A DNA stretch of 64,000 bases. Origin: an uncultured virus (IMG/VR IMGVR_UViG_3300032093_000120). Lineage: Duplodnaviria; Heunggongvirae; Uroviricota; Caudoviricetes. Positions within the stretch are counted from its first letter, which is position 1. Each line of letters opens with the position of its first letter. Positions 10,899 to 42,620 of this stretch are shown here, piece by piece. Under the pieces are notes generated by a model. That model was not told the origin of the DNA. It did not search any database and saw only the letters and a program-made list of their open reading frames with translations. The stretch is from the IMG/VR virus record IMGVR_UViG_3300032093_000120, one strand, 5' to 3'. A program made the translations under genes and the position numbers.

Positions 10899-12323
10899 AT
10901 GAGCCTACATGATGCTGCCAAACACCTAGCCGCGCACGGACGAGGCGACGATAAAGTCCTTATCCACATGACCAAGGGTGAGGTCAACAGTTTAAACGAC
11001 TTGGCAATGGCTCATGGCGGGCAATTAACTATTAATCCACACACAGGATTGCCTGAAGCAGGCTTCTTGTCAGGCTTGTTGCCCATGATGCTTGGTGCAG
11101 GACTTGCCGCCGCGACAGGTGGATCATCCCTATTGATTGGCGCTGGTATTGGCGGACTACAAGCAGCACGCACTGGAAGTATTAGCAAAGGTTTAATGGC
11201 TGGTCTTGGCGCATTTGGTGGTGCAGGGCTGGCTAGTGGCTTGGCTGCGGCTGGTAATGCAGCGGCTAGTCAAGCAGCATCTGCGGCAAACCCTGCTTTT
11301 ATGGGTCCAATGCCCGGGGCCGCTTCTGGATTAAGCGCTGTACAAGCCGGAGCTACGGGGCTTGGGACTGAAGCAGGACGTAGTGCCGCTTTAAGCGCAA
11401 TGGGTGGCGGAGCAGGCGCAGCAAAACTAGGCGTGATGGCTGCCTCACCAGCATTGGTTGGAGAAACAAAAACACCAACAATGGCTACCCCAGACAAAGA
11501 TATGGGACAGCGCTATAGCTTTACTGGAAACCAACCTCAAGCCACACCCGCGCCAGATGTACCAACATACGACGATATGTTGACAAAACAAGGCAACTTT
11601 GGAGGCCAGCAAAACTATTTTGCCACTCCAACATATACCCCAATTAACCCAACTCAGGCTAAAGACTTGTACCATTTTGCTGATGGTGGTCCGGTTGAGC
11701 AGATGTCTAACCAAGCGGCAATGGGTGCAAACACCATGTACCCAATGGCTAACATGGCAACGTCGTCGTTTGCCACGCCTTATCAGGCTCCTGTGTCCAC
11801 TAATATGCTTGCGCCTACCAGCGATACCCCGGTGGGCATGAACGGTGAGCCTAATATGCAGGGAACCCGTATGGCTGAAGGCGGTTCTGCTGATGAGAGT
11901 TTTCTGTCTGGAATTGCACGTTCATTTGGTGTGCGACCAAAGAAAGAAGATGAAAACCCCGCACTTAAATACGCCTACAACCAAGAACAACAGCAATACC
12001 AACAAATGGCTACGGGAGGTGTCTCCGATGCTCATTACAACCTTGGTGGCTATTCTGACGGTGGTCGCCTCCTTCGCGGTCCCGGTGATGGCGTATCTGA
12101 TTCAATCCCTGCGACCATAGGTCACAAACAACCCGCACGTCTTGCAGACGGAGAGTTCGTCGTTCCCGCCCGTATCGTTTCTGAGTTGGGTAACGGCTCA
12201 ACAGAAGCAGGCGCACGTAAGCTCTACGCCATGATGGATAGGGTGCAGGCCGCACGCAAGAAAACAGTTGGCAAAAACAAGGTAGCGCATAACAGCAGGG
12301 CAGATAAGTATTTACCCGCATGA
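10899..12323 (+). CDS. Internal virion / DNA ejection protein
   Basis: 'GRGDD..LIHM', 'INPHTGLPEA', G/A-rich hydrophobic stretch, 'GPGDGVSDSIPA...ARLADGEFVVPA'. Confidence 0.65.
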   Translation: MSLHDAAKHLAAHGRGDDKVLIHMTKGEVNSLNDLAMAHGGQLTINPHTGLPEAGFLSGLLPMMLGAGLAAATGGSSLLIGAGIGGLQAARTGSISKGLMAGLGAFGGAGLASGLAAAGNAAASQAASAANPAFMGPMPGAASGLSAVQAGATGLGTEAGRSAALSAMGGGAGAAKLGVMAASPALVGETKTPTMATPDKDMGQRYSFTGNQPQATPAPDVPTYDDMLTKQGNFGGQQNYFATPTYTPINPTQAKDLYHFADGGPVEQMSNQAAMGANTMYPMANMATSSFATPYQAPVSTNMLAPTSDTPVGMNGEPNMQGTRMAEGGSADESFLSGIARSFGVRPKKEDENPALKYAYNQEQQQYQQMATGGVSDAHYNLGGYSDGGRLLRGPGDGVSDSIPATIGHKQPARLADGEFVVPARIVSELGNGSTEAGARKLYAMMDRVQAARKKTVGKNKVAHNSRADKYLPA

Positions 12324-12781
12324 GCTACAGCATAACCATTGAGAAGTTCACTGACACGTACTTGGAACTTGAACCCTTGTACCGTCAACACTACTCTGAA
12401 ATGGTTGAGCGTCTTGCAGGTCAAGGTATTGTGTATTCGCCGTACAACCCTAGACTCCATGAGTATGGAGAGGCGTGTAAACGAGGTGATTTGATCACCT
12501 ATGTTTTACGTTTAAACGATAGTGCGTGCGGTTATACAAATGTGTATTTGACTAACGACATGCACAACGGTGATTTGATTTCACAAGAGGACACGCTCTT
12601 TGTGCTTAAGGATCACCGTAATGGCGTTGGTAAAAAACTTGTTCAGTTTGTACTTGAGGACTTGAGGTCCAGAGGTGTCAAACGATTGATGGTGTCGGCA
12701 ATGACCGACTTGCGCGTTGCAAAACTCTGGGGCCGGATGGGCTTTAAAGAGGCTGCAACGCAAATGATCTACGAATTCTAA
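12320..12781 (+). CDS. GNAT-family acetyltransferase-fold protein
   Basis: 'LFVLKDHRNGVGKKLV' (motif A-like) and 'KLWGRMGF' (motif B). Confidence 0.75.
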   Translation: MSYSITIEKFTDTYLELEPLYRQHYSEMVERLAGQGIVYSPYNPRLHEYGEACKRGDLITYVLRLNDSACGYTNVYLTNDMHNGDLISQEDTLFVLKDHRNGVGKKLVQFVLEDLRSRGVKRLMVSAMTDLRVAKLWGRMGFKEAATQMIYEF

Positions 12782-12791
12782 GGAAGACACT

Positions 12792-14870
12792 ATGTGCCAA
12801 TCCCAAGCCCCTACGCAACAGCAGATAGCCAGTACAGAATTACCTGAATGGGCTAAACCGTATGCCAAAGATGTTTTGGCTAAGGGTCAGGCGTTAACTG
12901 ACGTTAACCAGAATCCTTACCAGCAGTACAACGCACCACGCATTGCAGGGTTTTCCCCAATGCAGCAACAGGCTATGCAGAACGCACAAGGCATGTCTGT
13001 CGCACCTCAGGTCGGTGCGGGCACTGCAGGAGCAATAGGTGCGGGACTAGGCGGACTAGATGTTGCCGGTCAAGCCACTACCGGAGGATTCCAGAATCAA
13101 GTCGGTGGGTACATGAACCCGTATCTACAGATGGCACTGGCTCCGCAGTTAGCAGAGGCTAACCGTCAGTACGACATTGGTGCAACTAAACAGCAAAGTG
13201 CCGCCACTCAGGCTGGTGCGTTCGGTGGTTCACGTGAAGCAATCATGGCTGCGGAGAACGAACGCAACCGCAACATGGGGTTACAGAATATTCTTGGTCA
13301 GGGCTATAACCAAGCGTTTGGTCAGGCTCAACAACAATACAACCAAAACCTACAGAATCAACTTCAAGGTTATGGCATGTTGGGTAATGCCGCCAATTCC
13401 CTTGGTCAGTTAGGTCAGACCCAGTACGGTCAGGAGATGGGCATAAACCAATTGCAGGCTCAGTACGGTGGTCAGCAACAGGCCCTACAACAACAGGGTC
13501 TGACACAGGCTTATCAAGATTTCCAGAATCAACAGAACTACCCATACAAACAGTTGGGATTCATGTCAGACATGATCCGTGGCTTACCGCTGGGTCAACA
13601 ATCTACATCTCAGATGTACCAAGCCCCCGGAAGTGTGGCTGGTCAGATCGCCGGCTTAGGCATGGGCGCTTACGGTATGAGCAGAGCATTTGCCGCTGAG
13701 GGTGGCTTAATGGATTCTTACGCCGGTGGTGGAGAGATTGACAGCGCAGGCAACATTGCAGGCATCCTGTCTAAACTCAGCGACCAACAACTCCAGCAAG
13801 CAAAGCAAGCCGCGCTAGGACGCCGTGACGTAGAGCAAGCCAACTTGATTGACCAAGAGATGGCTGAGAGAGCCTCTATGCGCACTGGTGTAAACGCAGC
13901 CCCTGTAAACGCAGATGCTATGGCGTCGGATGAAAACCCAGACAGCATCACAGGCTACGCCACCGGTGGCTCTGCTGTTGAGGCATTAATGAACAGACCC
14001 AAAGAGCCAGAGACACCCGTCGATGAGCAGGCACTAGGTTTACTTGACAAGTTATCTGCTCGCAGCAAACCTGCAATGGACAGTTTAAACGCACAAGTTG
14101 AGAGCATTAAAGGTCGTCCTGAAGAGATTAAAGCGCGTGGGTTGAATGAAGCAATCGCTCAGTATGGTTTTGGTTTTGCACAAAAATCCGCCAAGCCCGG
14201 TGCTAGATTACTTGGTGCCGCCTCTGAGGCATCACCCATCCTTGCTGAGTCCATGATGAACACTAAGAAGTCCATCCAAGCGGCACAGGACAATTACATC
14301 AACCTCAAGATGAATCAGACCAAGTACCAGATTGCTCTAGACAAGGGTGATATGCAAACTGCCGCTACATTGGCTGGTCAGTTGCGTCAAGAGAAACAAA
14401 GCCAGAAGATGCTTGAACTCACAGCCGCGCACTACGCTGATGACTACAAAATCAAGCAGCAGCAAGTTGCCGCAACAAACCGTGCGCAAGGCGCTCCAAT
14501 CATGCAGGTTTATAACGAACTTAAGTCTGATCCTGCCAACAAAAACAAGAGCCGAGAAGAACTCATGGGCTTGGCAAGCAGAGCCGTGAGCGGTGCTCAA
14601 TATGCAGGAGCAGAACAGCGTGGTCTTGCGTCTTACCTCAAAGAGAAAAGTGAGATTGAAAAAGACTTCAAGACACTGCCGCTCCTACCGCCTAACAGCC
14701 CAATGCGTAAGCAAATGGAGGGCGCACGTCAACAGAGACTTGATGATTTAAACAAGATGTATCCCGGAGTTGCAGGCCAAGAAGGCGCTCCGTCTGGTAG
14801 CATCTCATCTGCAGTGCCACAAGGAGGCTCAATGAGCCAAAAAGGGTTTAAACTACTTGGCACGGAGTAG
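12792..14870 (+). CDS. Internal virion / ejection protein (Q-rich)
   Basis: 'LPEWAKPY', 'YMNPY', 'AGAFGGSR', Q/G-rich helical composition. Confidence 0.65.
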   Translation: MCQSQAPTQQQIASTELPEWAKPYAKDVLAKGQALTDVNQNPYQQYNAPRIAGFSPMQQQAMQNAQGMSVAPQVGAGTAGAIGAGLGGLDVAGQATTGGFQNQVGGYMNPYLQMALAPQLAEANRQYDIGATKQQSAATQAGAFGGSREAIMAAENERNRNMGLQNILGQGYNQAFGQAQQQYNQNLQNQLQGYGMLGNAANSLGQLGQTQYGQEMGINQLQAQYGGQQQALQQQGLTQAYQDFQNQQNYPYKQLGFMSDMIRGLPLGQQSTSQMYQAPGSVAGQIAGLGMGAYGMSRAFAAEGGLMDSYAGGGEIDSAGNIAGILSKLSDQQLQQAKQAALGRRDVEQANLIDQEMAERASMRTGVNAAPVNADAMASDENPDSITGYATGGSAVEALMNRPKEPETPVDEQALGLLDKLSARSKPAMDSLNAQVESIKGRPEEIKARGLNEAIAQYGFGFAQKSAKPGARLLGAASEASPILAESMMNTKKSIQAAQDNYINLKMNQTKYQIALDKGDMQTAATLAGQLRQEKQSQKMLELTAAHYADDYKIKQQQVAATNRAQGAPIMQVYNELKSDPANKNKSREELMGLASRAVSGAQYAGAEQRGLASYLKEKSEIEKDFKTLPLLPPNSPMRKQMEGARQQRLDDLNKMYPGVAGQEGAPSGSISSAVPQGGSMSQKGFKLLGTE

Positions 14871-14872
14871 TC

Positions 14873-17800
14873 ATGCCAATTTACAAAATCCAAGCTCCTG
14901 ATGGAAACATCTACAGGATTGAAGGTCCCGCTGGCGCTAACCCAGAAGATTTGTTCCGCACCGTTGCCGAACAAAGACCTATGGCTGCTAAGACAACAGA
15001 GGAGTTGCAGGCAGAGAAGTCCGCACCTACCTCTATTAGTGACCTTGCACGCACCGCAGGCTCCAGCTTTGTTGGGGCAGGTAAATCATTGGTGGACGTA
15101 TTTGGTGCTGGTTCTGATATATCTAGTTACCTTGGCGATGTAGCCCAGAAACTTGAACAAGGTAAAACCCCAGAACGTTTGGCTGAGATGGCTCGCCGTG
15201 CCGAGTTGTCTAAACGTGCTGAGAAAGAAGGTACGTGGGCGCAAATTAAAAGTGGCTTGGCAGGTGTCGCAGAAGCCCCGCTTGAAAGTGTCGTTGGTGG
15301 CGTTTTTTCTTCCGCTCCAACTATTGCCGCAGGTGCCGCCGCCCTAGCCGCTTTACCTGCATCCGCCCCTGCCGCCATAGCCGTAGGTGTTCAACGTGCT
15401 AGTCGGATTTTGATGTCTGCCGCCCAAGGAACTGGTGAGGTCAAGGGTGACATCCATGAGTCAATTAAAAACGCATACAAAGAGAAAAACCCCAACATGC
15501 CGCCCGAAGAGGTGGAGCGTTTGGCAACTGAAGCACAGGCTTACACACTAAAGAACGCACCCCTATTAATTGGTGGTGCGGCATTTGGTGCAATAGATGC
15601 AGTTACAGGATTTGAGAAATCAACATCTCAAGCCCTCAAGAACGCACTTAGCCCTAACAAAACAGCGTTTACCAAAGAAGGCCTTCAGTCCGCTATTGCT
15701 AACCTACCCAAGAAGGCTGTGGAAGCACCGACCTATTTGGGACAAGCAGTTAAGACCGGTATTGGTGAATCTATCCCTGAGGGCTTACAGGGTGGTTACG
15801 GTCAGTTAGCCCAGAACGTGGCTATGTCTCAGGCTGGGTTTGAGACACCGACATTCCAAGGTGTGGCGGGTGCGGCGGCTAGAGATGCGCTAGTAGGTGC
15901 GTTGACCGGAACGGCAATGTCTCCTTTGAGTCATTCTGTTGCTAACGCTGAGTTCCAAGCGGACAAGTACTTACGGGGCGTTCAAGCCCAACAGCAGTTT
16001 GACAAAGAACGTGAAGAGTTTGCTAAGACCCAAGAGCAAACCAAAGAAAACCTTGGTGTAAACAAAACACTGATGCTGGGCTACGAGCCTCCAGCAGAGG
16101 AAGAGAAGTACACCAACCCAGCCGCAACTATTAAGAAGAACGAGTTGATGGCTGACGAGGTTAAGTTTGTAGATACCTACCGCAAACAAAACGGTCTGCC
16201 ACCGCTCAAGTCATATTCCATTGAAGACATAAAAGATGCGATGCCTAATGTTGACCCAGCGGGTGAACAAGGTCGTATTGATTCAATCCTAGCCGCCAAG
16301 TACGGCTACAAGCCTGTGGATGACAACACAGGTAAGCCAGTGAACTACACCGCTGATGACGTCATCTCTGCCGCTGAGGACGAGAAGAACGTTGCTACAG
16401 GCACTAAAGGGTTCAACGATTTCCTAACGCGCACTACAGGTTCTAGTGATTTAAACACTATGACCCAGCCGCAGTTGTTTGCTGCGTACTCTGCGATTAA
16501 ACAGATGCCTGAGTCCACAGAGAAGGTTATCCTTCCAGAGGGCACTGGTGCGTCTAGATTCACAGATAAGCAGTACAAGAAGGCTGTCAGTTGGTTTGGT
16601 CAGACCTTTGAGAGTGTTGACAACAAGCCTTTGTCGCGGGATACCATCATTGGCGACATTCAAGAGGCGACAGGGCTGGAACAGAAGCAAGATGCTGAAG
16701 CCCTTCTAGATACCGCAGTTAAAAACGGCGACTTGGCTGAGACCGAAGAAAGGGTTTTCAGAACCTATGACGCCAACGACAAACTTGTTTCAACGTACCG
16801 GGACAAGGAAAAGGCCGCCGCAGCGGCTAAAAAACAAGGTTTAAACGTTAGAGAAGAAACATTAAGACAGATGATGCCGCCACCAGCGGCAGAGCCAGCT
16901 AAACGCGCTAACCTCCCAGAGGGTTACGCCATGAGCAAGGAGACCATCAAAGAAGGTGAAGTCCCCGTTGGTTTTGACATCTTCCCAGAAGGTAAGGGTA
17001 AGGCTCTCTTTACCGTTCCCACATCAGAGGCGGTACAGGAAAAGATTGACCAACTCATCCCAGCCCGCAAGAAAGAAGCCGCACGCTATCTGTCTTACAT
17101 GGACAGAGACAAGGCTACTTTGCAAAAGGCAAGAGACAGTTTGGTCTCTATGGAAGCACGTGGCGAGGTAGGGTCACAGGCTTATGAACTTGCCAAGACT
17201 AAGTTAGCCAAGCAAGAGAGAGTGCTGGGCAACCGTATTCTCAAGAGCATGGAGCGTATTACGGATTACGAGCAACCGCTCATATCACGTCCGTCTGAGA
17301 AGAAGAAGCAAATCACCCGTGAGAAGATCACGGTAACTAAACAAGGTAAGTTCCTAGGTAGTTTCCCTGATAACGTCAAGGCACAGGAGGCTATCCTTGT
17401 CCAGATGTCGGATCAGGAACTGGCTGACACAGCGTCTGACGGTCGTCTTGGTGCGATTGCTGACCGTGCCGCCAAAGAGATTGAGCGCCGTAAGAGTCCC
17501 ACTGGCATCATGGTCAGACGCACTCCCAAAGCCAAGGAAGAGTTACCACCCCTATCCCCAGAACTCACCGCAGTTGCTGATGAGATTTCTAAGAAGTTAG
17601 TCCCCATTCTTCAGCGCATGGGGTTAGGCGATGTCGGGTTCAAGATTGTTCAGTCTATTAAGAACGGTGGAGAAGGCTCTTACACCAAGAACCTGATTCA
17701 GTTGGCTATTGATGCCGAGAAACCGCTGGAGGTTATGCACCATGAGTCCCTCCACGCACTGAAGGACTTAGGGTTCTTTACACCACAACAATGGTCTACC

Positions 17801-20800
17801 CTAGAGAACCAAGCACAGAAGTCTTGGATCACTAAGTACCTCAAGAACGTACAGGTTGAAGTTGAGATTGATGGCGTGAAGCAGACTATGTCTCGCTATG
17901 ACGCCTATGTGGCGTTGAAGTACACACCAGAAGACATTGTGGAAGAAGCAATTGCTGATGCGTTTGCTGACTTTGCTACCTCCAAGCCGCCGGGCGGAAT
18001 GATCGCTTCCATAATGAAGCGTTTAAACGACCTATTCAAGGCAATCAAGAATGCGTTTAACCGCAGCGGGTTTGAGTCCGCAGAGGACATCTTCACCAAA
18101 GCACAGCGCGGTGAGTTAAAGCCAAGCAATTGGAAGGCTACCCCAGAGGTTAAGGCTCAGGCCGATGCCTATGACCAACAAAACGGCATCCTCCCCTATA
18201 CCTCAGAAGGTCAGATCAAGATTCCGCTAGAAGGCGAAGGTCAGAAGCTGTCCCTCAAGAAGGCTTACAGCGAAAAAGATGTAGCCAGAGAACAGCGTAA
18301 ACAAGAGGCTGGCAAGAAGTTCAAGGTTTTAAAGAATGACCCAATCACTGGATTGCCTTTAAACCAAGACGGCACGGTAACCCTGTACTACCCCACCACA
18401 AATGAGGGCGCACGTGAACTGGCACGCACTAAGAAGTTAGTTGGACATAGCCCAACCGCTAACCGTATCTATCTAACCAATGAGTCTAGTGCGCCAGAAG
18501 TTGCTAAGAATCCAAGCATGATTGAACAGCCATTGGGTGGTGCAAATGTCATGTTGCAAATTGACCCATCTTTCCTTCATCCGTTGGAAGACCATGATAA
18601 AAGCGGTCGTAGGGATTTCTTCATCCCTATTGCTGAAGGTCAGGCATTTGCCAATAAGGCACGTTTAACCAAGCTGTTTACACTGGATGCGCCACGCACA
18701 AAAGGGCTGCATCCTGACCGCACTCTGGCTCAAGTCCAAGACGCCATCACTGACACGGTTGCTAAGTGGAAGAATGCATCTGCACAAGAACGCAGACTGA
18801 TGGCAAGTCAGGCTAAGGCAACGCTGATTGCCCAACACAACGTTACTAGATTGTTTGGTGCTAACTCTAAACTAGAGAAGACCAATATCGGTGACTACGG
18901 TTTGACTTTCAATGGTAAGAAGGTAATGTCTACAGGGCTGGGCTTTGCCTCGGCTCAAAAGATTAATGACCAACAACTTGCTAGTACATGTCCTAAGTCA
19001 GCCATCTGTGAGGCTCTTTGCCTTGGTGAGACATCAGGACAAAACTTGTTATATGGCGGCGAAGGCGAGTTCCGATCTGGCCCGCGCCTATCTCAGTACC
19101 TCAAGACTGAGGCGTTGATTGTTAACCCAGAAGCGTTTACGGTTGCCATGATCAGACAGATTGAGGCGTTCCGTAATGCAGCTAAGGCTGCTGGCAAAGA
19201 AGACGGCGAAGCGGGCTATCAACCTGCTATCCGTTTAAACGTTACATCTGACTTCAAACCTGCCACGTTTGAAGCCATCATTAACATGTTCCCAGATGTG
19301 ATGTTCTATGACTACACCAAGTTAGAGACAAAGCCGATCGCCCCTAACCACCACCTGACCTACAGTTCTACCGGTGCATCTCAAGTTGTTGGAAACAAAG
19401 TCATTTACAACAAAGAGTCCAACTGGGACAACATGGTTAAGAAGTTCCTGTCAAATGGCAAGAACGTGGCTATGGCGTTCACCAGCAGAAATGCTATGCC
19501 TAAGTTTGTTATGGATGAACGTACCGGAAAAACTTTTGAGGTGTGGAATGGTGATGAGTACGATGCTCGCTTCCTTGACCCATCACGTGAAGACGGTGCT
19601 GGATTGATCATTGGTCTAACCAACAAAGACAACACCACCAAACCAGAAGACGCTGCTGAGAAGCACAAAGGGTTCTTCTTGGACTACGACCCCGCACGTG
19701 ACGGCGACACCCTAATCATTCGTAACCAAGACAGTCTGAAGCCGGGTGCGCCAGTAGAGTTTAAACGCAAAGAAAAATTAAGCCTGCGTAGCGCACGGGG
19801 CATGTTTGAGGATGGCTTGATTCAAGAAGTTCCAAACTACAAGGGTAGAGAAAAGGTTATTGAATTACCTATCAAAGACTTCCTAAGACTTGCACAAGAG
19901 GGTGAAGTCAAGGGGAAGCAAAGTGATATTGAAGACCTGTTCAAAGCCGGCACAAAGTTAAATTCACTGCCTTTGTTGATGGCTTACAACAACCAAAAGG
20001 GTGACTTAAAGGTTCAGGGGCATGAGGGACGTCACAGGGCTAGAGCTTTACTTGGTCAAGGGTATGACACCATGCCCGTTAGATTCCTTACGAGCATTCG
20101 CTGGTCTGAACAAAACGACCCAACAAACTTTGATTATGAAAAGAATTGGCCTTCAAAAGTTATCTCTGAGGACAGCGATGACATAAGCATTCCCATGCCT
20201 GTATCCCGTGAGCAATCAATGGAGCCGTACAGCAGTGAGAAGTTAAGCCTACGCAAAGCACCTGATACACCAGCGTTTAAACGGTGGTTTGGCAAAAGCA
20301 AAATAGTCAACCCGGATGGAACGCCTAAGGTGATGTACCACGGAACGTCTAGGGATATAGGTGCGTTCAAGCCTAAACAGGCTGGCGCTATTTTCTTAAC
20401 TGATGATTCCGACTTTGCTGCGCGATTCTCCCAGCGATCAACTGATTTCATGTTGAATGAAATTGCCAAAGGTATAGATTCAAAACCAGACGAAAAGCGT
20501 GCTTTGATTACACGCTTGGTTGATGATGCAGTTGCCAACAAAAAACTGGCAACAAAAGAAAATTCCAACGGGCTGTTTGATACAACTAGAGAAGAGCATA
20601 TTGAAGAGTTTATGAATCGTCCGCTATCCCAATCAATGGGTACGGTCGGTATTGGTAATGCATTGACGCAAGAACTCTCTGATCGCATGCCTTCAGGTCA
20701 AAACATAATGCCTGTTTACGTAAAGGCTGAAAATACTTTTGATTACGAAAATCCTAGGCACATCAAAAAAATCATTGATCATTTCACAGAAATTGACAAT

Positions 20801-23800
20801 GACGATATAACATGGTTAAAAGCCGGAAATTGGGAAACAATTGAATCTGAGGGTGTCCAAGACGCTATTCAGTTTGCTGGGTTTGACAGTTTCTATGTAA
20901 AAGAGCACGGTCGCAAAAACCTTGCTGTTTACGAGCCAACCCAAATTAAGTCCGCTACTGGCAACCAAGGCACATTTGACATCAATGAACCTGATGTTCG
21001 TTTGAGCCTCAAGAAGGTTAACGAGTTATTTGACAAGGCAGAAGACATCCCTGAGTCAGAGGGTGTTGAGATCATCCGTAGCAACTGGATCGGTGGTGTA
21101 TCAGGCATTGGCGAGCGTGACTCAGCCTATGACTTGTACCGTGTAAACGGTGGCAAGAAATACATGAGCGCTGTTCAAGACTTAGTGCGTAAAGAACTTG
21201 GAGATAACTTCAAAGGCTACCGCCTGATGCATACCGACGAGTTGGAAGAGATACAGACTGGTGCTATGGGCAGTCAACTGGCATCCTTCACCTTGCGTCC
21301 TGACATTGCACAATCGTTTGCCAACTTAGCAACGTATAGCAAAGTTCCAAAAGACAAACTAAAAGTTGTTGAAATGGACTTAACTCCTGAGCATGTGTGG
21401 ATGGTTGGTCATCCTGCAGAGCAAGAGTTGGTCATTGATTACGGTCAGGGCTACAACCCATCAGCAGTTACTGAGTACAAAGAGAAACTCAGCCTACGTT
21501 CGCTGATGCCTGACCTGCGCAGCCAGCGCCAGCCGCCAGATTCTAAAGAGTTTAAACAGTGGTTCACTGGTAGTTACTTCACGTCCAACGGCGAGCCATT
21601 GATCATGTACCACGGCACTGCCCGTGACATCACCATATTCAGAGGCAAGCAAGCCAAGGCTATTTTCATTACCACTAATCCTGTGGTGGCTGAGAACTAC
21701 ACAGGCATGGGTGAGGACTACATGCGTGCTGAAGCCTATAAGGCTTTGACCCGTGATGAGAAGGCTGAACTCATTTCTGTTGTGGCTGAACAGGCCGAAC
21801 GTGATGGAACTATTAACAAAGACGAACTCAAAGAGATTCAAAAGAACCTCAAGAAGCGCGTGCCTGATCTCAAGAACCTGCCGTATCAGATTGAGGGCGA
21901 GATCATTGAGAGTTTAAACAACCTACTGCCTACACGCGGCAACATCATGCCCGTGTATGTCAACGCCAAGAATGTGTTTGACTACGCTAATCCTAATGAC
22001 GTGAATTTAGTCATGGACAGGCTTACCAACTACAGCAAGACATTAGGTAAAAAGGAAAACCCTGAGCAGTACTTAGCCGCTGTTAAGGGAATGATCTCCC
22101 GTGGCAACTGGCCTCGCATTGAAAGCCCTGAGGTACAAGAAGCGATCCGTGGTGCGGGCTTTGACGGGTTCTCCGTCCTAGAAGCCGGCACTAAGAATTA
22201 TGCCGTCTACAACCCGACCGCCATCAAGTCTGTTACAGGAAACATTGGAACGTATGGTTTGGGCGAGGTAAGCACTGAACAAGCCGCACAGTTTGGCATG
22301 ACAGCAGAGCAAGCCCGTCAGGCACAGGCAGAAGGTGACATCCGCCTCAGTCTGAAGAAAGTTCCTGTCGGCATCCCAGATAACGTTTGGAATTTACACA
22401 ACAGATATCAGGAAGCACAAGGCAACGTCGCTGAAGGCGAGATGGTCTCCCAGCGCAAGACGGCTGCAACCAAAGCGTTTAAACGCCTAAGTGATGCTGC
22501 AGAAGCGTATACAGGCAACGAACAAGACGCACTCAAGTTAATGCAAGAGATGAATGCCATCAGCGGTATTCGTCAGGCTATGGCTGAGGACGACAAGAGT
22601 GCGTTGGATACATACAAGGTTATGTCTCCCGCCCTGTGGCGTCAGGAAACCCGCGAGAAGTTAAGCCTACGTGCCGCCACTGCACCAGCCATGAATGCCG
22701 CAATTGACAGAACCACCTTTGTAAGGGAGGAAAAAGGTTTTGTTGAAAGGTTGATGGAAGCTATCTCTCCTCAGTCATGGTCTGACTTCCGTGCCAAGGC
22801 TTTGAACCGTTACAACGCTATGAGCGTGGCGGACAAGAAGCGTGCGCAGAAGATGGGTGGAGCCGCCCTCCTTGCTGACCAAAGCGCTGAATCAGCCGCA
22901 CTCATGTCTGATCTGTCAGCGGGTGTGACAGCCTCTGTCCTAGGTGTGCATGACCGTAACGGTGGTGCTCCGGTCTTCCGTAACGGTGTAACCACAGTTG
23001 ATGGAAGCATCAAAGGTCCCGTGGCTATCTTTGCTCCGTTGGCAAGATATGGTGACCCACGCATTTATCAGATGTGGCAGTTCTATGCTGGCGCTAAACG
23101 TGCCCGTAGATACTTCAAGGACGGTAAAGAGCAGAACTACACGCCAAGCGACATGGCCTACGCCGACCAGTTAGGCCAGCAGTACCCTGAGTTTAAACAG
23201 ATATTTGACGAGTGGAATGCATTCAACAACGCACTAGTCCAGTACCAAGTGGACACAGGTGTGCTCAGTAAAGAGCGTGCAGATGAATACCGCAAGTACT
23301 CAGACTACCTACCGTTCTACCGCCAGTTGGAAGACGAGGCAACCCTCGGTCCTAAGGTGTTCCAAAGCATCTCAGGCGTCAAGGGTCCTAAGAAGCTCAA
23401 AGGCTCAGAGGCTCCTATCGCTGACCTGATGGAGACCATCGTCCGTAACGTTCAGTCTGGCATCCAAGCCGGTATGAAGAACACAGCGGCTCAACGTGCT
23501 ATTAAGGTGTTTGAAGACATTGGTGAGGCTGTGCCTACCCACCCAACAGACACCGGACCCTCTACCGTGTATGCCTTGGTCAACGGTGAGAAGAAGGCCT
23601 ACATCGTTGCAGACCATGCGCTATACAACTCTATGCAGAGTTTAAACTTGCCTGAGTTGCCGTTCCTTGGCTTCTTCGCTGGTCCCGCTAACCTCTTGCG
23701 TAACCTAGTTACTAAAGACCCCGGATTCATGTTAGCCAACATGGTGCGTGACTCTATGTCTGCATGGGTAACTAGCGGAGTCAGCATGACCCCCGTAGCC

Positions 23801-25213
23801 TCCGCCGTCAAGAACTTCACTGGTGCGTTGCGTGGCACTGCTCCAGAATACCAAGCCCTGTTAAACGCTGGTATCTTGGGTGGCTATGAGTTCTCACAGA
23901 ACGTGGAAGCAAGCGGTAAGCAACTCAGTAAAGAGTTAGCCAAGTACGGTCCGACCACAACCTTTGGCAAGATCACCAAGCCGTTTACATCCCTGTGGGG
24001 TGCGTTAGAGAAAGGCACTACAGCCTCTGACGCTGCGACCCGTATGGAGGTTTACAAGAATGTATTGGCTGAGACCGGTAATGAGGCGGAAGCCCTGTAC
24101 CGTGCGCTTGAGGTGATGAACTTCAACCGTAAGGGTAACTCAGCGGTCGTCCGCATCCTGACTGCCGCCGTGCCGTTCCTGAATGCACGCATGCAAGGTC
24201 TAGATGTTCTTTACCGTGCGTCATTTGGTCAAATGGCTACGCAAGACGCAAAAGCAATTCAGAAGTCGTTCTTCATTAGGGGGGCAACTATCATGGCTAT
24301 GTCCATGATGTACTGGGCGCTGACCCATGATGAAGAAGATTACATGAAACAGGAACAGGAAACCCGTGACAACTACTGGTTAATACCTAGTCTCGGCATC
24401 AAGATTCCTATTCCGTTTGAGGTGGGCGTTATCTTCAAGGTGATCCCTGAGCGTATCGCTGAGTATGCCTTTGGCAACGACACAGGCAAGGACTTTGCCG
24501 ATGCCATGAAGCGTAACTTCACAAACACCTTTGCGTTTAACCCAATCCCTCAGACCATCCTTCCGTTGGTTGAGGCTAGGACCGACCACTCATTCTTCAC
24601 CGGACGAGCCATCCTTAGTAAGGGACTAGAAGGCGTGGCTCCTGAGTACCAAATAGGACCCAACACCTCGCGCATGGCGCAGTTCTTTGCCAGTTTGACA
24701 AGCGGTATGACGGCACTCCCTGATTTCCTCCGCTCACCAGCAATGATTGATCACATCATCGGTGGCTACACAGGAACGTTTGGCATGTATGCCGTAGACG
24801 CTGTGGATGCGATTGTCAGTGCTAATAGTGATGTACCTAAGGCGTCTAAACGTTTTGAGCAGATGCCCGTACTGCGCAGGTTCTTGCTTGACCCTGAGGC
24901 ACGTGGCAACGTTACGGCGTACTACGACCTCAAGAACGCAACCGACGAGGTGGTCAGGACATCTAACTTCCTTGAACGCACCATGAACTTTGAGAACTTC
25001 GCGGACTACAGCCAAGACACCATAAAGATGTTAGCAAGCGCTGACTTCGTTAAGTCTATGGACAAGGACATGAAGGAGTTAAACGACGTAATCGGCGTCA
25101 TAAGGAACTCCAGCATGAGTTCTGATGAGAAGCGGGATGCCCTGTTGTCCCTCAATCAGGCTCAGAACAACCTGACTGCCAACATTAAGTTGATTAAGAA
25201 ATCACTTGACTGA
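14873..25213 (+). CDS. Giant polyvalent virion protein: zincin peptidase, several ADP-ribosyltransferase domains, GP88-like, ParB-like, C-terminal LPD38-like
   Basis: HESLH at aa 957; two 'FK.WF..S...G.P..MYHGT...MPVYV.A.N.FD...GFD...IKS.TGN.GT' modules; YR/SFT/EQE module; 'RLNVTSD..FYDYTK'; 'EGRHRA'; 'NFNRKG..VPFLNARMQG..KIPIPFEVG'. Confidence 0.8.
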   Translation: MPIYKIQAPDGNIYRIEGPAGANPEDLFRTVAEQRPMAAKTTEELQAEKSAPTSISDLARTAGSSFVGAGKSLVDVFGAGSDISSYLGDVAQKLEQGKTPERLAEMARRAELSKRAEKEGTWAQIKSGLAGVAEAPLESVVGGVFSSAPTIAAGAAALAALPASAPAAIAVGVQRASRILMSAAQGTGEVKGDIHESIKNAYKEKNPNMPPEEVERLATEAQAYTLKNAPLLIGGAAFGAIDAVTGFEKSTSQALKNALSPNKTAFTKEGLQSAIANLPKKAVEAPTYLGQAVKTGIGESIPEGLQGGYGQLAQNVAMSQAGFETPTFQGVAGAAARDALVGALTGTAMSPLSHSVANAEFQADKYLRGVQAQQQFDKEREEFAKTQEQTKENLGVNKTLMLGYEPPAEEEKYTNPAATIKKNELMADEVKFVDTYRKQNGLPPLKSYSIEDIKDAMPNVDPAGEQGRIDSILAAKYGYKPVDDNTGKPVNYTADDVISAAEDEKNVATGTKGFNDFLTRTTGSSDLNTMTQPQLFAAYSAIKQMPESTEKVILPEGTGASRFTDKQYKKAVSWFGQTFESVDNKPLSRDTIIGDIQEATGLEQKQDAEALLDTAVKNGDLAETEERVFRTYDANDKLVSTYRDKEKAAAAAKKQGLNVREETLRQMMPPPAAEPAKRANLPEGYAMSKETIKEGEVPVGFDIFPEGKGKALFTVPTSEAVQEKIDQLIPARKKEAARYLSYMDRDKATLQKARDSLVSMEARGEVGSQAYELAKTKLAKQERVLGNRILKSMERITDYEQPLISRPSEKKKQITREKITVTKQGKFLGSFPDNVKAQEAILVQMSDQELADTASDGRLGAIADRAAKEIERRKSPTGIMVRRTPKAKEELPPLSPELTAVADEISKKLVPILQRMGLGDVGFKIVQSIKNGGEGSYTKNLIQLAIDAEKPLEVMHHESLHALKDLGFFTPQQWSTLENQAQKSWITKYLKNVQVEVEIDGVKQTMSRYDAYVALKYTPEDIVEEAIADAFADFATSKPPGGMIASIMKRLNDLFKAIKNAFNRSGFESAEDIFTKAQRGELKPSNWKATPEVKAQADAYDQQNGILPYTSEGQIKIPLEGEGQKLSLKKAYSEKDVAREQRKQEAGKKFKVLKNDPITGLPLNQDGTVTLYYPTTNEGARELARTKKLVGHSPTANRIYLTNESSAPEVAKNPSMIEQPLGGANVMLQIDPSFLHPLEDHDKSGRRDFFIPIAEGQAFANKARLTKLFTLDAPRTKGLHPDRTLAQVQDAITDTVAKWKNASAQERRLMASQAKATLIAQHNVTRLFGANSKLEKTNIGDYGLTFNGKKVMSTGLGFASAQKINDQQLASTCPKSAICEALCLGETSGQNLLYGGEGEFRSGPRLSQYLKTEALIVNPEAFTVAMIRQIEAFRNAAKAAGKEDGEAGYQPAIRLNVTSDFKPATFEAIINMFPDVMFYDYTKLETKPIAPNHHLTYSSTGASQVVGNKVIYNKESNWDNMVKKFLSNGKNVAMAFTSRNAMPKFVMDERTGKTFEVWNGDEYDARFLDPSREDGAGLIIGLTNKDNTTKPEDAAEKHKGFFLDYDPARDGDTLIIRNQDSLKPGAPVEFKRKEKLSLRSARGMFEDGLIQEVPNYKGREKVIELPIKDFLRLAQEGEVKGKQSDIEDLFKAGTKLNSLPLLMAYNNQKGDLKVQGHEGRHRARALLGQGYDTMPVRFLTSIRWSEQNDPTNFDYEKNWPSKVISEDSDDISIPMPVSREQSMEPYSSEKLSLRKAPDTPAFKRWFGKSKIVNPDGTPKVMYHGTSRDIGAFKPKQAGAIFLTDDSDFAARFSQRSTDFMLNEIAKGIDSKPDEKRALITRLVDDAVANKKLATKENSNGLFDTTREEHIEEFMNRPLSQSMGTVGIGNALTQELSDRMPSGQNIMPVYVKAENTFDYENPRHIKKIIDHFTEIDNDDITWLKAGNWETIESEGVQDAIQFAGFDSFYVKEHGRKNLAVYEPTQIKSATGNQGTFDINEPDVRLSLKKVNELFDKAEDIPESEGVEIIRSNWIGGVSGIGERDSAYDLYRVNGGKKYMSAVQDLVRKELGDNFKGYRLMHTDELEEIQTGAMGSQLASFTLRPDIAQSFANLATYSKVPKDKLKVVEMDLTPEHVWMVGHPAEQELVIDYGQGYNPSAVTEYKEKLSLRSLMPDLRSQRQPPDSKEFKQWFTGSYFTSNGEPLIMYHGTARDITIFRGKQAKAIFITTNPVVAENYTGMGEDYMRAEAYKALTRDEKAELISVVAEQAERDGTINKDELKEIQKNLKKRVPDLKNLPYQIEGEIIESLNNLLPTRGNIMPVYVNAKNVFDYANPNDVNLVMDRLTNYSKTLGKKENPEQYLAAVKGMISRGNWPRIESPEVQEAIRGAGFDGFSVLEAGTKNYAVYNPTAIKSVTGNIGTYGLGEVSTEQAAQFGMTAEQARQAQAEGDIRLSLKKVPVGIPDNVWNLHNRYQEAQGNVAEGEMVSQRKTAATKAFKRLSDAAEAYTGNEQDALKLMQEMNAISGIRQAMAEDDKSALDTYKVMSPALWRQETREKLSLRAATAPAMNAAIDRTTFVREEKGFVERLMEAISPQSWSDFRAKALNRYNAMSVADKKRAQKMGGAALLADQSAESAALMSDLSAGVTASVLGVHDRNGGAPVFRNGVTTVDGSIKGPVAIFAPLARYGDPRIYQMWQFYAGAKRARRYFKDGKEQNYTPSDMAYADQLGQQYPEFKQIFDEWNAFNNALVQYQVDTGVLSKERADEYRKYSDYLPFYRQLEDEATLGPKVFQSISGVKGPKKLKGSEAPIADLMETIVRNVQSGIQAGMKNTAAQRAIKVFEDIGEAVPTHPTDTGPSTVYALVNGEKKAYIVADHALYNSMQSLNLPELPFLGFFAGPANLLRNLVTKDPGFMLANMVRDSMSAWVTSGVSMTPVASAVKNFTGALRGTAPEYQALLNAGILGGYEFSQNVEASGKQLSKELAKYGPTTTFGKITKPFTSLWGALEKGTTASDAATRMEVYKNVLAETGNEAEALYRALEVMNFNRKGNSAVVRILTAAVPFLNARMQGLDVLYRASFGQMATQDAKAIQKSFFIRGATIMAMSMMYWALTHDEEDYMKQEQETRDNYWLIPSLGIKIPIPFEVGVIFKVIPERIAEYAFGNDTGKDFADAMKRNFTNTFAFNPIPQTILPLVEARTDHSFFTGRAILSKGLEGVAPEYQIGPNTSRMAQFFASLTSGMTALPDFLRSPAMIDHIIGGYTGTFGMYAVDAVDAIVSANSDVPKASKRFEQMPVLRRFLLDPEARGNVTAYYDLKNATDEVVRTSNFLERTMNFENFADYSQDTIKMLASADFVKSMDKDMKELNDVIGVIRNSSMSSDEKRDALLSLNQAQNNLTANIKLIKKSLD

Positions 25214-29462: not shown

Positions 29463-29768
29463 TTAAAATGGGATATCGTCATCGGAAATCTCAGCCTTTG
29501 GTGCGGGCTGTGCCACGGGGGTGGGGGTAGCGCCTTGATCCTCAAACTCCTTGCGTTTGACACCTAGTGAGAGGTAGGTCTTACCGCTCTTAGCAACCTT
29601 CTTCCAACCGCTCAACTTAACGATGTGCAGTCCGTCCTCAACTCGGATGTTAGTCATGTCGCTGAGGTTGAGTGCGATCTCTCCGAAATAATCGGGAGAA
29701 GTCTCCTTGCGCTTGCTTTGGGTTGCGTTGAGACTACCTGAGTCGGGGCGGGGTTTAAACTGATCCAT
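29463..29768 (-). CDS. Putative single-stranded DNA-binding protein
   Basis: 'PDYFG...LSGWKK..KSGKTYLSL' and acidic tail DDDIPF; next to the SSAP. Confidence 0.7.
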   Translation of the reverse strand: MDQFKPRPDSGSLNATQSKRKETSPDYFGEIALNLSDMTNIRVEDGLHIVKLSGWKKVAKSGKTYLSLGVKRKEFEDQGATPTPVAQPAPKAEISDDDIPF

Positions 29769-30403
29769 TAGTCTTCCTTCTTAAAATTAGCCTTAGCCTC
29801 TGTAAACCGTGCAAGCACAGTCGTATAGAGGGTCTTATCAAATGCCTTTAACCCCTCAAGTTGGGTATGGTTGGCTTTCCAGTATGACTTCAGTGCGTTT
29901 TCATCCTCACAGATGTCCACAAACTGAATCATTGAGTCCGCAAACAGTTTCATGTTCGCTTCGTTGACCTCAACCTTGGCGGTTGCGGTAGGTGTCTCAA
30001 TTACCTTCACAGGCTCAGGCTCTACGCCAGTTTCAGACGGCAAGTCTTGACCGCCATAGATATACAAGCCAAGTCCATGCATGGCGATTGCCTTGACTAA
30101 GCAACGCATGATGGATGTGTTTACATCAAACGAGTTCGGTGTAGCCACCGGCTTATTCCTGTAGTCCAACACCGGCAACATACAGGTGACGGGCTTATCA
30201 AACATGGTGACGGTTACCCACACCATGAATGTCCCACCTACTGGCATTAAGGGAGAGCCATCAAACATCTCCACCTTAAAGTTAACCTTGGGGTCAGCCT
30301 TTAGTGCCTCTGCCCATGCCCACGCCCAAGACAAATACGTTAGCCCGTTCTTGGACTCCGTATGATCATTGACGTTAATCTTTAGCAAATCAATTGGTGA
30401 CAT
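29768..30403 (-). CDS. Sak3/DUF1071-type single-strand annealing protein
   Basis: 'LTYLSWAWAW', 'LPVLDYRNK', 'NTSIMRCLVKAIA.HGLGLYIY.G.DLP'; ATG 30403 with AAGGAG. Confidence 0.85.
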   Translation of the reverse strand: MSPIDLLKINVNDHTESKNGLTYLSWAWAWAEALKADPKVNFKVEMFDGSPLMPVGGTFMVWVTVTMFDKPVTCMLPVLDYRNKPVATPNSFDVNTSIMRCLVKAIAMHGLGLYIYGGQDLPSETGVEPEPVKVIETPTATAKVEVNEANMKLFADSMIQFVDICEDENALKSYWKANHTQLEGLKAFDKTLYTTVLARFTEAKANFKKED

Positions 30404-31256
30404 TGATTTCTCCTTGGTATTGTTCACACCACTCTGCGACTCCGCAGTAGTTTCCGGTGCACCGCTTGGGTTCACCGAGCCTTGTTTCGACATAGCCCTT
30501 CTCCTTCTCAGCCAGTTCATTGGCTTCTTCAATTGTTTTAAATAGTCGGATCGCAGTCTTGCGTCCTTCGCGCTTTACAGCGTAGATGGTCTCTGATTGC
30601 CATCTGTCTGTGTCTGAACAGGCAGGGAGTTCATCCCCGAAATCTGCCGACACCTTCGCATCTCTGTGTAGGTTTAAACGCTCCCGCACATAGGCCTCAG
30701 TCGTAACTGAGTCCCACATTGGGATGTCCACCATTTCTATTGAGGCTTTTGGGTAGCCTTCTTTTGTCTCATGGCGGTTGAAGTCACGCACCAGTGCGCA
30801 TATCTTTAAGCCAACCACCTTCTTCCTCTTCACTGTCTCCACCAACCACTTATATACGTTGAGTTGCTGTTGCCACTCTTCCTTCTCTTGCATGACTGCC
30901 CACGCTGAGGTGAACTTGTAGTCAATGATTACCACCCCCTCAGGAGTCTCTTGTTGGATGTCAATCGCACCACTGACGGTGACCCCATCCACCTCTTTAT
31001 ATAGACGCTCTTCCATCGTCCACCCATCAGTAACACCCCGCTCCATGACCACGTGCAGTGCTGAACCCAATAGATTCCACAACATATCTGATACATCTTG
31101 TTTGATCTTATCGTTGTACTGTTCTCGCAACCGTTTGATCTTTGGAGGGGACATTATTTCTGTAACGCTGTACTGGGATGCCCCCTTGCTGTAGTACTCC
31201 TTGCTCGCCAGAGTGACCAGTGGCTCTGGTACTCCATGTTTATTTGTTATGATCAT
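30390..31256 (-). CDS. PD-(D/E)xK (Cas4/RecB-like) exonuclease
   Basis: 'GSALH', 'SGAID', 'IIDYKFT', 'QLNVY', C-terminal Cys cluster. Confidence 0.85.
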   Translation of the reverse strand: MIITNKHGVPEPLVTLASKEYYSKGASQYSVTEIMSPPKIKRLREQYNDKIKQDVSDMLWNLLGSALHVVMERGVTDGWTMEERLYKEVDGVTVSGAIDIQQETPEGVVIIDYKFTSAWAVMQEKEEWQQQLNVYKWLVETVKRKKVVGLKICALVRDFNRHETKEGYPKASIEMVDIPMWDSVTTEAYVRERLNLHRDAKVSADFGDELPACSDTDRWQSETIYAVKREGRKTAIRLFKTIEEANELAEKEKGYVETRLGEPKRCTGNYCGVAEWCEQYQGEINVTN

Positions 31257-38870: not shown

Positions 38871-40502
38871 TTATGCCACTAATTTGATTTTGCTGAATGC
38901 CACTGACCCGATGCTGTGAACATCACGCACGGTCACGTTGTGCTTGTATACGTTGGATACGTTTTGCTGTATGCCCAAGCCTATGGTTGTGATGCCAAGG
39001 TTTTCGCCTGAGTTAACTTGTGCCTTGGTCTCATCGACATTGCCTTCACCATCAGTCAACACAAAGCAAACCTTACGCTGTGCTGAGTGACCGTGCAATA
39101 ACTCATGGGCATAGCGCACTGCAAAGTAATCGTTGGTGCATCCGCCCGAACCAGTGTGACGTAATGCATCGATGGTCTTCTTTGCGTTGTCGCTGAACTT
39201 CTTAGCCACGCCCACTTCATCACCAAATGTCAGCAGTGCTGTATCGACACCCGCTTTGCTGAGTGCATCCAACAGGGATGCGCATGCGTTGATGGCGCAC
39301 TGCATGGGTGAGTTAGGCAAGTCGCTGATGAACATTGACTGTGATACATCCAACACAATCACCACTGCAGAGTCGATACCTTCAACATCTAACCTACGTT
39401 TAAACACACGGTCATTACCCTGTGGCACGGAATGCAAAGCATTGACGTTCAACGCACCCGCCTTGCGCTTAGGTTGGTACTCGCTTGTGCCTGTATTCTC
39501 AAAGAGTTTACGCACCTCATAACGTAACTTAGCACCCACGTTCACGTCAGCCTTGAACTGTGGATTACGGCATGCATGCCCACGCTTGGTGATACCGTTG
39601 GCTTTAGAGTACGTGCCCTGTGCTTGTGTTCCCTCAGGGGCTTTAGACATTGGCTCTACTGGGCGTGCCTTGCAAATGTCACCGTCTTTTTTCACTGGTG
39701 AACATGCCTTGCCTGTGGGCTTAGGACGGTCAGTAGTACCCTCACCCTCACCCTGTGCCTGATCGTCGCTTGTAGACCCCTTCTCGTCGGTCTGAGCACC
39801 ATTGCCTTGCCCCTGTCCCTGACCTTTGCCCTGACCGTCAGGGTTGCCATCCGATGGCTTGTCGCTGTCACCCTTGGGTTGTGGGTTTTTGTTGTCGATG
39901 TTTTGCAGTTGATCAAATACCCACACTGCGATAGCCAATGTGTCGAATGAATTTTGGACAGTGGTAAGACGTGCGCATGCAACGTCAAATATTGGTTGCA
40001 ATCCCTCAGCCAAGGGTAACTTCACGGTTGCGTGCTTGCGTGCATAGACAGCCAACAGGAAGGGGTAGCGTGCGGGGTGATGCCACTTGTCATCCCAACC
40101 AACCAGTGCATCAGTGCTCATGCCATCGATCACGCTAGACAAGAGACCCTCAGCATTACCGACTAGACCCTGTGCAATACATGTGTTCTCAATCCATGCG
40201 TCCTCAATAGCGTTGTGCAATTGATCGATGTACTGGTTGTCACCACGTGCGTTGAAGTCGGTGTACTTACGGTGCAACAACTCATGCAAGATAAATGCAA
40301 CGTACTTGTCAAAGGTCTTGCGATCAATGATGGCGTCATCTGCCACGTTAGCCAACTCAATGTCACCACGTGCATTGATGCGTGCTGTAGTGACCTCAGT
40401 CCATGACACCGTCACTTGTGGCAGTGCCAACTCAGAACATAACTTGTGGCATGCACCGTCAATTGCGATGCGGAATTCATAACCGTTTAAACGTGCTTTC
40501 AT
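38871..40502 (-). CDS. CobT-like protein: N-terminal HExxH domain, low-complexity linker, C-terminal vWA domain
   Basis: 'LHELLH..YT...NAIEDAWIE', G/D/Q linker, MIDAS 'DVSQSM', 'LTDGEG'. Confidence 0.85.
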   Translation of the reverse strand: MKARLNGYEFRIAIDGACHKLCSELALPQVTVSWTEVTTARINARGDIELANVADDAIIDRKTFDKYVAFILHELLHRKYTDFNARGDNQYIDQLHNAIEDAWIENTCIAQGLVGNAEGLLSSVIDGMSTDALVGWDDKWHHPARYPFLLAVYARKHATVKLPLAEGLQPIFDVACARLTTVQNSFDTLAIAVWVFDQLQNIDNKNPQPKGDSDKPSDGNPDGQGKGQGQGQGNGAQTDEKGSTSDDQAQGEGEGTTDRPKPTGKACSPVKKDGDICKARPVEPMSKAPEGTQAQGTYSKANGITKRGHACRNPQFKADVNVGAKLRYEVRKLFENTGTSEYQPKRKAGALNVNALHSVPQGNDRVFKRRLDVEGIDSAVVIVLDVSQSMFISDLPNSPMQCAINACASLLDALSKAGVDTALLTFGDEVGVAKKFSDNAKKTIDALRHTGSGGCTNDYFAVRYAHELLHGHSAQRKVCFVLTDGEGNVDETKAQVNSGENLGITTIGLGIQQNVSNVYKHNVTVRDVHSIGSVAFSKIKLVA

Positions 40503-40512
40503 TGTGTGCTCC

Positions 40513-42006: not shown

Positions 42007-42020
42007 TTGTATTACTCCAA

Positions 42021-42620
42021 TTAAACTAGGGTCAAGACGTCTTGATCGACAGGGCAAGAGGGCAAACCATAGGACGCCCACTTAGAAGACAGGCGCACGG
42101 TGTAGCCACAGGATGGGCACTCAGCCTTTAGCATGCGTGTGCCTTGTTTTTTCTTACCGTTAGAGAATGCCAACTCAGCGTGGGGGTATGCACCCAGTGA
42201 GTCGATGATTGCCCCGTAGGCTTGATCAAACCCGTTAGCCCCTTGCGTGTAGCCCCATGCATTCTTACGTGTGGGGTTGACAGGCTCTAGGAGCATGGCT
42301 GATGCGATCTTTTGGAAGTTGATGCCGTGATTGAATCCCCCCTTGGCGGTGTGGCACAACTCATGTACCAACACTTCAAATACTTTGCGAGGGTCAGCGA
42401 TGACAGGGGAGATAAGGATTTCGTAATGCTTGTCGGCACTGGCAGTGTCGATCCAACATTCACCAATAGCGTTGTTGCGCTTGGCATGTAGGGGAAAGCC
42501 ACAAGTAAGGCGGACTTTGTCGGGCAGTATTGACCCTGCAATTTCAAATGCGGGGCGCAGTTCGTTGTATGCAACGGTGAGCCACTCTTCACGTGTGGCG
42601 TGGACGGTAGGTAAGGTCAT
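42021..42620 (-). CDS. SprT-like zincin metalloprotease with C-terminal Zn ribbon
   Basis: 'TREEWL', 'IGECW', 'LVHELCH', 'TRMLKAECPSCGYTVR...GLPSCP'. Confidence 0.75.
   Translation of the reverse strand: MTLPTVHATREEWLTVAYNELRPAFEIAGSILPDKVRLTCGFPLHAKRNNAIGECWIDTASADKHYEILISPVIADPRKVFEVLVHELCHTAKGGFNHGINFQKIASAMLLEPVNPTRKNAWGYTQGANGFDQAYGAIIDSLGAYPHAELAFSNGKKKQGTRMLKAECPSCGYTVRLSSKWASYGLPSCPVDQDVLTLV

Follow-up and report, generated by a model that had tools for sequence, protein, structure and literature searches.

A five-residue word fences the cargo modules of a phage polyvalent protein and is a candidate cut site for its embedded zincin-type domain

INTRODUCTION

In the polyproteins that RNA viruses of eukaryotes encode, one chain carries an embedded protease and a repeated short site between its units, and cleavage of such chains has been shown. 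The analogy to these viruses was drawn for the phage-type polyvalent proteins, whose processing by an embedded metallopeptidase domain (MPTase) was predicted in 2017 (PMC5512222). The available text of that account describes large proteins of late gene clusters, in which MPTase, ART-PolyVal, ParB-like and LPD38 domains are combined, and it names neither a cleavage site nor a junction motif. Here we describe a protein of this kind, which is encoded in a 64,000-nucleotide (nt) stretch from an uncultured virus of the Caudoviricetes (IMG/VR IMGVR_UViG_3300032093_000120); the whole stretch is called the window, and amino acid (aa) numbers refer to the 3446-aa product of the open reading frame (ORF) 14873-25213. 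The protein belongs to the phage-type polyvalent proteins of PMC5512222. Its one chain joins several domains that are biochemically unrelated (GP88, two ART-PolyVal, LPD38, and the folds of an ADP-ribosyltransferase (ART) and of ParB/sulfiredoxin (Srx)), and the window is the genome of a tailed phage, which encodes portal, terminase, capsid and tail fibre proteins as well as an ejection protein upstream of the giant gene.

The LPD38 tail is shared with gp47 of phi24B, which is known from its description as a virion protein and has been proposed to be an ejection protein (10.64898/2026.04.10.717836), and with gp25 of PTXU04, the product of PTXU04_00025, which is needed for efficient infection (10.1101/2023.09.18.558157). 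In PTXU04, as here, a peptidase precedes the tail (HExxxH, ~150 aa before it), but the tail is 28% identical, no cargo lies behind the peptidase and there is no clear motif. The ejection proteins gp65-gp67 of crAss-like phages, likened here by their description, are virion proteins with a zincin domain, sometimes fused and thought to be cleaved, but they carry an RNA polymerase cargo and the available text gives no site (10.1101/2020.03.07.982082). In contrast to the RNA-virus polyproteins, the protease considered here is of a different class, the units are interchangeable accessory effectors and the cutting is predicted. While processing by the MPTase had already been predicted, the candidate site, the fixed cassette slot and the exchange pattern with its 56 architectures appear, as judged from sequence, to go beyond the account in PMC5512222. 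No paper naming a cleavage site was found in the literature searched, the scope of which did not extend to subscription journals or to the supplementary alignments of PMC5512222, and the available texts of PMC9503650, PMC12002296 and PMC9024508 held nothing on a site.

RESULTS

The word is confined to the cargo region

The sequence-only reading of the window had described seven [KR]LSL[KR] words at domain boundaries, behind a zincin-type peptidase, in what it took for a polyvalent protein. On rechecking, all seven words matched exactly at the positions listed in Table 1, and HESLH and the downstream EEAIADAF were both present. The words are confined to the cargo region, and no near match (four of five residues) was found elsewhere in the protein, including the N-terminal ~1120 aa and the C-terminal ~845 aa from which the word had been said to be missing. 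The expected number of such words was 0.019 per protein, compared with the 7 observed; at most 2 copies occurred in any of 5000 shuffles of the protein, and no five-residue word with K and R merged occurred more than three times across 300 shuffles. The assignment as a polyvalent protein with a zincin-type domain is supported by domain matches, by the layout of the peptidase and by its conserved residues. The placement at domain boundaries also held, as modelled folds fill the intervals between the motifs and homology breakpoints cluster at the words. The gene is best explained as a cassette polyprotein, which consists of a constant N-terminus, a zincin domain, a variable run of cargos and a constant LPD38 tail.

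In the close set, which comprised the 120 best-matching of 884 tail homologues, HExxH was kept in all of the 118 proteins that span the peptidase region. A relaxed form of the word was found 394 times in the variable region, 0 times upstream and 3 times downstream, while 14.0, 13.5 and 11.1 occurrences, respectively, were expected; this word and its regular expression were picked after matches had been seen, and the homologues are not independent. With distant sets added, a stretch of at least 900 aa preceded the tail in 528 records, of which 473 matched the peptidase profile and 465 had HExxH, the other 8 being N-terminally cut records. The 465 were reduced to 195 representatives at 80% peptidase identity. 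In these, 360 occurrences of the SL-type word were counted in the cargo region, which runs from the HExxH domain to the LPD38 tail; upstream of this region there was 1 (8.9 expected), and downstream there were 6 (10.8 expected). A second clade uses [FY]SR[KRNS], with 46 occurrences in the cargo region and one in each constant region. The first motif followed 110-190 aa past HExxH in 79 of 129 proteins. The data showed that [KR]-[FYL]-S-L-[RK] fences the cargos: as in a self-processing polyprotein, a conserved site is found at the boundaries of units and is missing inside them. The six cargo modules proposed earlier hold as a count of segments, but the first segment (505-510 aa) exceeds its GP88 match, and some homologues join domains without an intervening motif. 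In L008 and L012, aa 1108-1862 form a stretch of 750 aa with no inner motif, at a place where modules of 500 and 417 aa, split by one motif, are seen in other homologues; this stretch is possibly a fused cargo.

Modules are exchanged at the word

Breakpoints were defined as the ends of high-identity alignments among 116 proteins, a set from which a duplicate and two truncated proteins had been removed. When the motif was masked, 380 of 787 breakpoints lay within 10 aa of a motif, compared with 7.2% for random positions. The corresponding number with the motif unmasked was 282 of 697, and when decoys were masked too, 389 events were counted at 381 motif sites versus 51 at 700 decoy sites; these two runs rule out a masking artefact as the source of the clustering. 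In the window protein all nine breakpoints were within 10 aa of a motif. Many alignments start 15-60 aa upstream of a motif, and these starts are read as the shared ends of ART modules. The 259 motif-bounded modules fell into 32 clusters and formed 56 architectures in 102 proteins. In L011, a relative with a 95% identical tail, DNA identity starts inside motif 2 and stops inside motif 3, and in both L011 and L007 an added 169-aa module, flanked by the word on either side, sits at motif 6. Exchange of modules thus takes place at the word, and the expectation that aligned homologues would show modules gained, lost or swapped there was borne out by the breakpoints, the architectures, the comparison with L011 and the Halomonadaceae prophages described below. 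The sequencing runs that contain the gene, apart from those that could be its source, are freshwater or lake metagenomes; contigs from 4 of the 22 listed runs over 17000-24000 gave no joint at a motif, but these were short fragments and uninformative.

The word is kept at the peptide level

Between any two of the seven copies, 5-14 of the 15 bases are shared, and for the 20 pairs other than that of motifs 3 and 7 the number is 5-13. The 17-nt identity noticed earlier between linkers 3 and 7 is real, with a chance, under gene-wide codon use, of ~0.001 per pair and of 0.006 over the six EKLSLR pairs. Among 27 KLSLR sites there were 20 spellings, and one 14-nt spelling was common to 4 sites with different neighbours. 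Since the 17-nt match is above codon chance and the 14-nt spelling recurs, the copies are related by descent, and crossovers make use of them. Over 59 orthologous junction pairs, silent differences at identical residues amounted to 31% both in the motif (87 of 283) and in the flanks (297 of 962), while replacements affected 12 of 295 motif codons and 218 of 1180 flanking codons, a difference that arises partly by construction. Codon identity between genomes was not higher in the motif than in tail columns without variation; Ser was the exception (0.57 vs 0.43) and was encoded by AGC at 141 of 191 sites and by TCN at 22. DNA identity changes over within the motif, but the synonymous rate there is the same as in the flanks, so that the peptide and not a DNA site is under selection.

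In cassette systems of the integron or shufflon type, a conserved DNA site lies at each junction and a dedicated recombinase is encoded nearby. No conserved DNA site per junction was found here, and the window ORFs scanned gave matches to Sak, an exonuclease and RusA, and none to an integrase or invertase. A strict DNA recombination site was rejected, as descent and the peptide account for the conservation seen in the DNA. Hence, the suggestion that the motif DNA is the crossover point stands insofar as crossovers fall inside it, but not in the sense of a strict recombination site.

Empty and loaded slots in distant relatives

In a distant set of 48 records, which included near-duplicates and one marginal tail match, HExxH or HExxxH was found before the tail in 47, and among cultured LPD38 phages HExxxH was present in 5 of 10. 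A junction scoring matrix trained on two close clades reached its cut-off of 8 at the tail junction in 12 of the 48 records, compared with 0.6% of random windows. Six Halomonadaceae prophage proteins, with peptidases of the HExxxH type and with cultured hosts, were picked for the contrast between empty and loaded slots, and the identities of their cargos were judged by eye. In L198, from a prophage of Chromohalobacter canadensis, and in L218 the slot is empty, with the peptidase, one word and the tail following each other, while L195, from a prophage of Salinicola peritrichatus, and L197, L211 and L216 hold four different cargos with a similar word on each side. This contrast suggests a single ancestral junction, which would have been duplicated with each insertion. 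No close cultured phage was found, the best tail identity being 30%, and the nearest genome-contig matches were short pieces in mixed bins. Several copies of a ~30% identical peptidase-like domain were seen in Bryobacterales genomes (L299-L305, L307), five of them in one bin.

The peptidase domain and the segments between the words

In its model, the peptidase domain has the layout of a zincin, with the HExxH helix (residues 59-73) behind a three-stranded sheet (30-34, 43-46 and 49-53) and the Glu pair on a later helix (127-142). Among the 195 representatives, E1024 was conserved in 194, E1025 in all 195 and Y1012 in 192. The top structural neighbours of the model were zincins with Z scores of 4.5-4.8, including PPEP-2 (Z 4.8, root-mean-square deviation (rmsd) 3.9, 106 aligned residues), and Wss1 and PprI were also in the top rows. 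The PDB sequence search and NCBIfam gave no significant match for the peptidase.

In a model of aa 1625-2220, the ParB/Srx fold occupied model residues 27-148, an ART-like match residues 180-405, and an ART fold residues 418-588, which correspond to the interval between motifs 4 and 5. The ParB/Srx-like module contains a second HExxH (HEGRH, aa 1717). The fold of cargo 4, for which the Pfam search was without a match, was assigned with Z 7.2, rmsd 3.8 and 140 aligned residues. Motifs 3-5 lie at stretches with a low predicted local distance difference test score (pLDDT), which was discounted, since the linkers are not covered in most rows of the alignment. The linker flanks are rich in Pro and charged residues, with 21% hydrophobic residues compared with 29% inside modules.

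Table 1. Features of the giant gene and of other genes in the window
Feature	Position (nt)	Strand	Details
Gene matching DNA ejection protein family	12792..14870	+	Upstream; phrog_4287, E 6e-21
Giant polyvalent protein gene	14873..25213	+	3446 aa; closes late-gene run
N-terminal constant region, aa 1-892	14873..17548	+	Word avoided here; matches no family
Zincin-type metallopeptidase domain, aa ~893-1090	17549..18142	+	Conservation and model, pLDDT 85
HESLH	17741-17755	+	aa 957
EE	17942-17947	+	aa 1024-1025, in EEAIADAF
Motif 1, KLSLK	18245..18259	+	aa 1125
Cargo 1, 505-510 aa	18260..19774	+	Unnamed N-terminal part and GP88
GP88 (PF17338) in cargo 1	18959-19600	+	E 3.8e-17; cluster of 39 modules
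Motif 2, KLSLR	19775..19789	+	aa 1635; L011 DNA identity begins here
Cargo 2, 150 aa	19790..20239	+	ParB/Srx-like fold, Z about 6, weak
Motif 3, KLSLR	20240..20254	+	aa 1790; 17-nt copy 20237-20253
Cargo 3, 248 aa	20255..20998	+	ART-PolyVal (PF18760), E 8.3e-19
Motif 4, RLSLK	20999..21013	+	aa 2043
Cargo 4, 157 aa	21014..21484	+	ART fold, C3/VIP2 type; structure match
Motif 5, KLSLR	21485..21499	+	aa 2205
Cargo 5, 281 aa	21500..22342	+	Second ART-PolyVal, 37% identical to cargo 3
Motif 6, RLSLK	22343..22357	+	aa 2491; extra module here in L011/L007
Cargo 6, 100 aa	22358..22657	+	No convincing match in family searches
Motif 7, KLSLR	22658..22672	+	aa 2596; conserved pre-tail junction; 17-nt copy 22655-22671
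Constant C-terminal tail	22673..25213	+	LPD38 (PF18857) 24332-24874, E 1e-33
Sak single-strand annealing protein and PD-(D/E)xK exonuclease	29768..31256	-	Candidate recombination machinery
MoxR/CobS-type AAA ATPase and vWA protein pair	38871-42081	-	vWA protein with N-terminal HExxH
SprT-like HExxH protein	42021-42620	-	PF10263, E 1.3e-4, below cut-off

DISCUSSION

The word is the best candidate for the long-predicted cut site of such proteins, and we consider it probable that the chain is packed and ejected and that its own zincin cuts it at each word. The genomic context and, by analogy, the proteomics of phi24B gp47 suggest that the protein is packed into the virion and injected with the DNA. 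The chain would be packed whole in the head and ejected along with the DNA, and its zincin would cut each word, in the head or after entry, which would release the tail, the ARTs and the modules of the ParB-like and GP88 types. A cut in the word between its aromatic or Leu residue and Ser would give new N-termini that are stable by the bacterial N-end rule. In the ancestral form one word would have stood between peptidase and tail, and cargo would have been gained by recombination in short motif homology, perhaps mediated by the phage Sak, or in the conserved ends of ART modules; recombination in the motif would leave a word on both sides, and selection would retain only fenced inserts. A more tentative proposal, to which we give somewhat less than an even chance, is that one word of five residues serves the in-chain zincin as its cut site and recombination as a landing pad, so that any fenced domain is packaged, injected and released. 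The slot would then be widespread and open-ended, with between 0 and 8 words in a protein and modules of 32 clusters, and would work alike in lineages ~25% identical.

Co-folding of the peptidase with a motif linker, which the sequence-only reading had proposed as a check, gave weak support. The score with the motif-3 linker was 0.50 and that of the best control 0.01, the controls being unrelated proteins and not scrambled motifs, with no contacts given, and the individual runs scored 0.50, 0.58 and 0.01. The mark, with a contact agreement of at least 5% and a partner pLDDT of at least 34, was reached by 116 of 157 solved and by 2 of 215 mismatched pairs; 18 solved pairs and both mismatches lie at scores of up to 0.60, which makes the result weak.

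Several further observations weigh against cutting by the chain's own zincin, besides the after-the-fact choice of the relaxed word among related proteins. The match to the zincin fold is weak, with every Z below 5, and the Foldseek search of the peptidase gave nothing under E 0.001. Strict SL-type sites were missing from 25 of 144 closer representatives, 33 of 565 gaps exceeded 600 aa, 407 of the 787 breakpoints lay more than 10 aa from any motif, and 36 of the 48 distant peptidase-plus-tail proteins, including that of PTXU04, were without a clear junction motif. In the model of aa 1625-2220, motif 2 is part of a block predicted with confidence (pLDDT 86), and motif 4 continues into a helix. 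The comparison of motif type with peptidase columns yielded 3 changes on the tree and 3 independent pairs among 119 classified rows, too few for significance. A coupling of the motif type (SL or SR) to the charge of the residue that precedes HExxH is not supported either, with exceptions on both sides and only 3 independent pairs. Finally, two further HExxH proteins are encoded in the window, and according to the available text of PMC5512222 the MPTase-bearing N4 virion RNAP, ArdC and TraC1 are packaged or transferred unprocessed.

The unprocessed travel of these related proteins would fit a word that is recognised but left uncut, as a docking or threading signal for the zincin-fold domain, the tail or the ejection channel. 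The domains would then be unfolded, passed and refolded in turn, and the zincin would act on peptidoglycan, a host protein or another target. Such a signal would explain one word per module and the avoidance elsewhere equally well, and motif 2 may be packed against its domain. For phi24B, the peptidase of the LPD38 protein has been proposed to have a role on peptidoglycan, with no test given in the available text (10.64898/2026.04.10.717836), and the crAss preprint, in its available part, keeps both roles open (10.1101/2020.03.07.982082). We nevertheless consider an uncut signal unlikely, because a five-residue word with a near-fixed Ser and flanks rich in Pro and charge resembles a protease site, and because the single ancestral copy lies directly behind the peptidase.

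Cutting by another protease, either a phage enzyme in trans or a host protease, would have candidates with HExxH in the SprT-like gene at 42021-42620 and the vWA protein at 38871-40502, and is judged decidedly improbable. Neighbouring late proteins are not enriched in the motif (5 matches in 145 upstream ORFs vs 4.8 expected), which argues against a general head protease, no prohead protease was found in the part of the ORFs that was scanned, and the word travels with the cis peptidase and the tail into distant prophages. The word could also be no more than what recombination has left behind, a short in-frame homology that swapping has spread and that is devoid of peptide function, as DNA identity switches within its 15 bases, one 14-nt spelling stands between different neighbours at 4 of the 27 KLSLR sites, AGC prevails as the Ser codon (141 of 191) and the phage encodes Sak and an exonuclease. 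This explanation is already disfavoured and seems very unlikely, given the 20 spellings at those 27 sites, the use of both Ser codon families (22 TCN), the depletion of the word upstream, and a synonymous rate equal to that of the flanks while replacements are rare, the latter partly by construction.

These data define an exact candidate site, a putative catalytic residue, E958, and empty and loaded prophage versions in cultured bacteria. If the chain is indeed cut by its own zincin, this would be a new sequence-specific protease, would explain how phages swap early effectors in one slot, and would provide a rule for splitting unannotated giants into domains, with 4133 tail relatives at E 1e-30 among 50% clusters.

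Genomic context

The Sak protein and the PD-(D/E)xK exonuclease (Table 1) are candidate recombination machinery, which may be tied to module swapping. The upstream ejection protein carries a motif-like RASMR at aa 360, and such a word stands at the corresponding position in 4 of 145 upstream ORFs, though overall its frequency is not above chance. A GroES-like gene (48905-49315) lies beside the portal gene, and a GNAT acetyltransferase is encoded among the ejection genes (12320-12781). The palindrome GTTTAAAC, on which a literature search found nothing relevant, occurs 50 times in the window, compared with 3.3 expected, from 1457 (first) to 60064 (last). Of 67 close-clade loci, 48 had it at a density of at least 2 per 10 kb, compared with 0 of 57 genome-contig loci.

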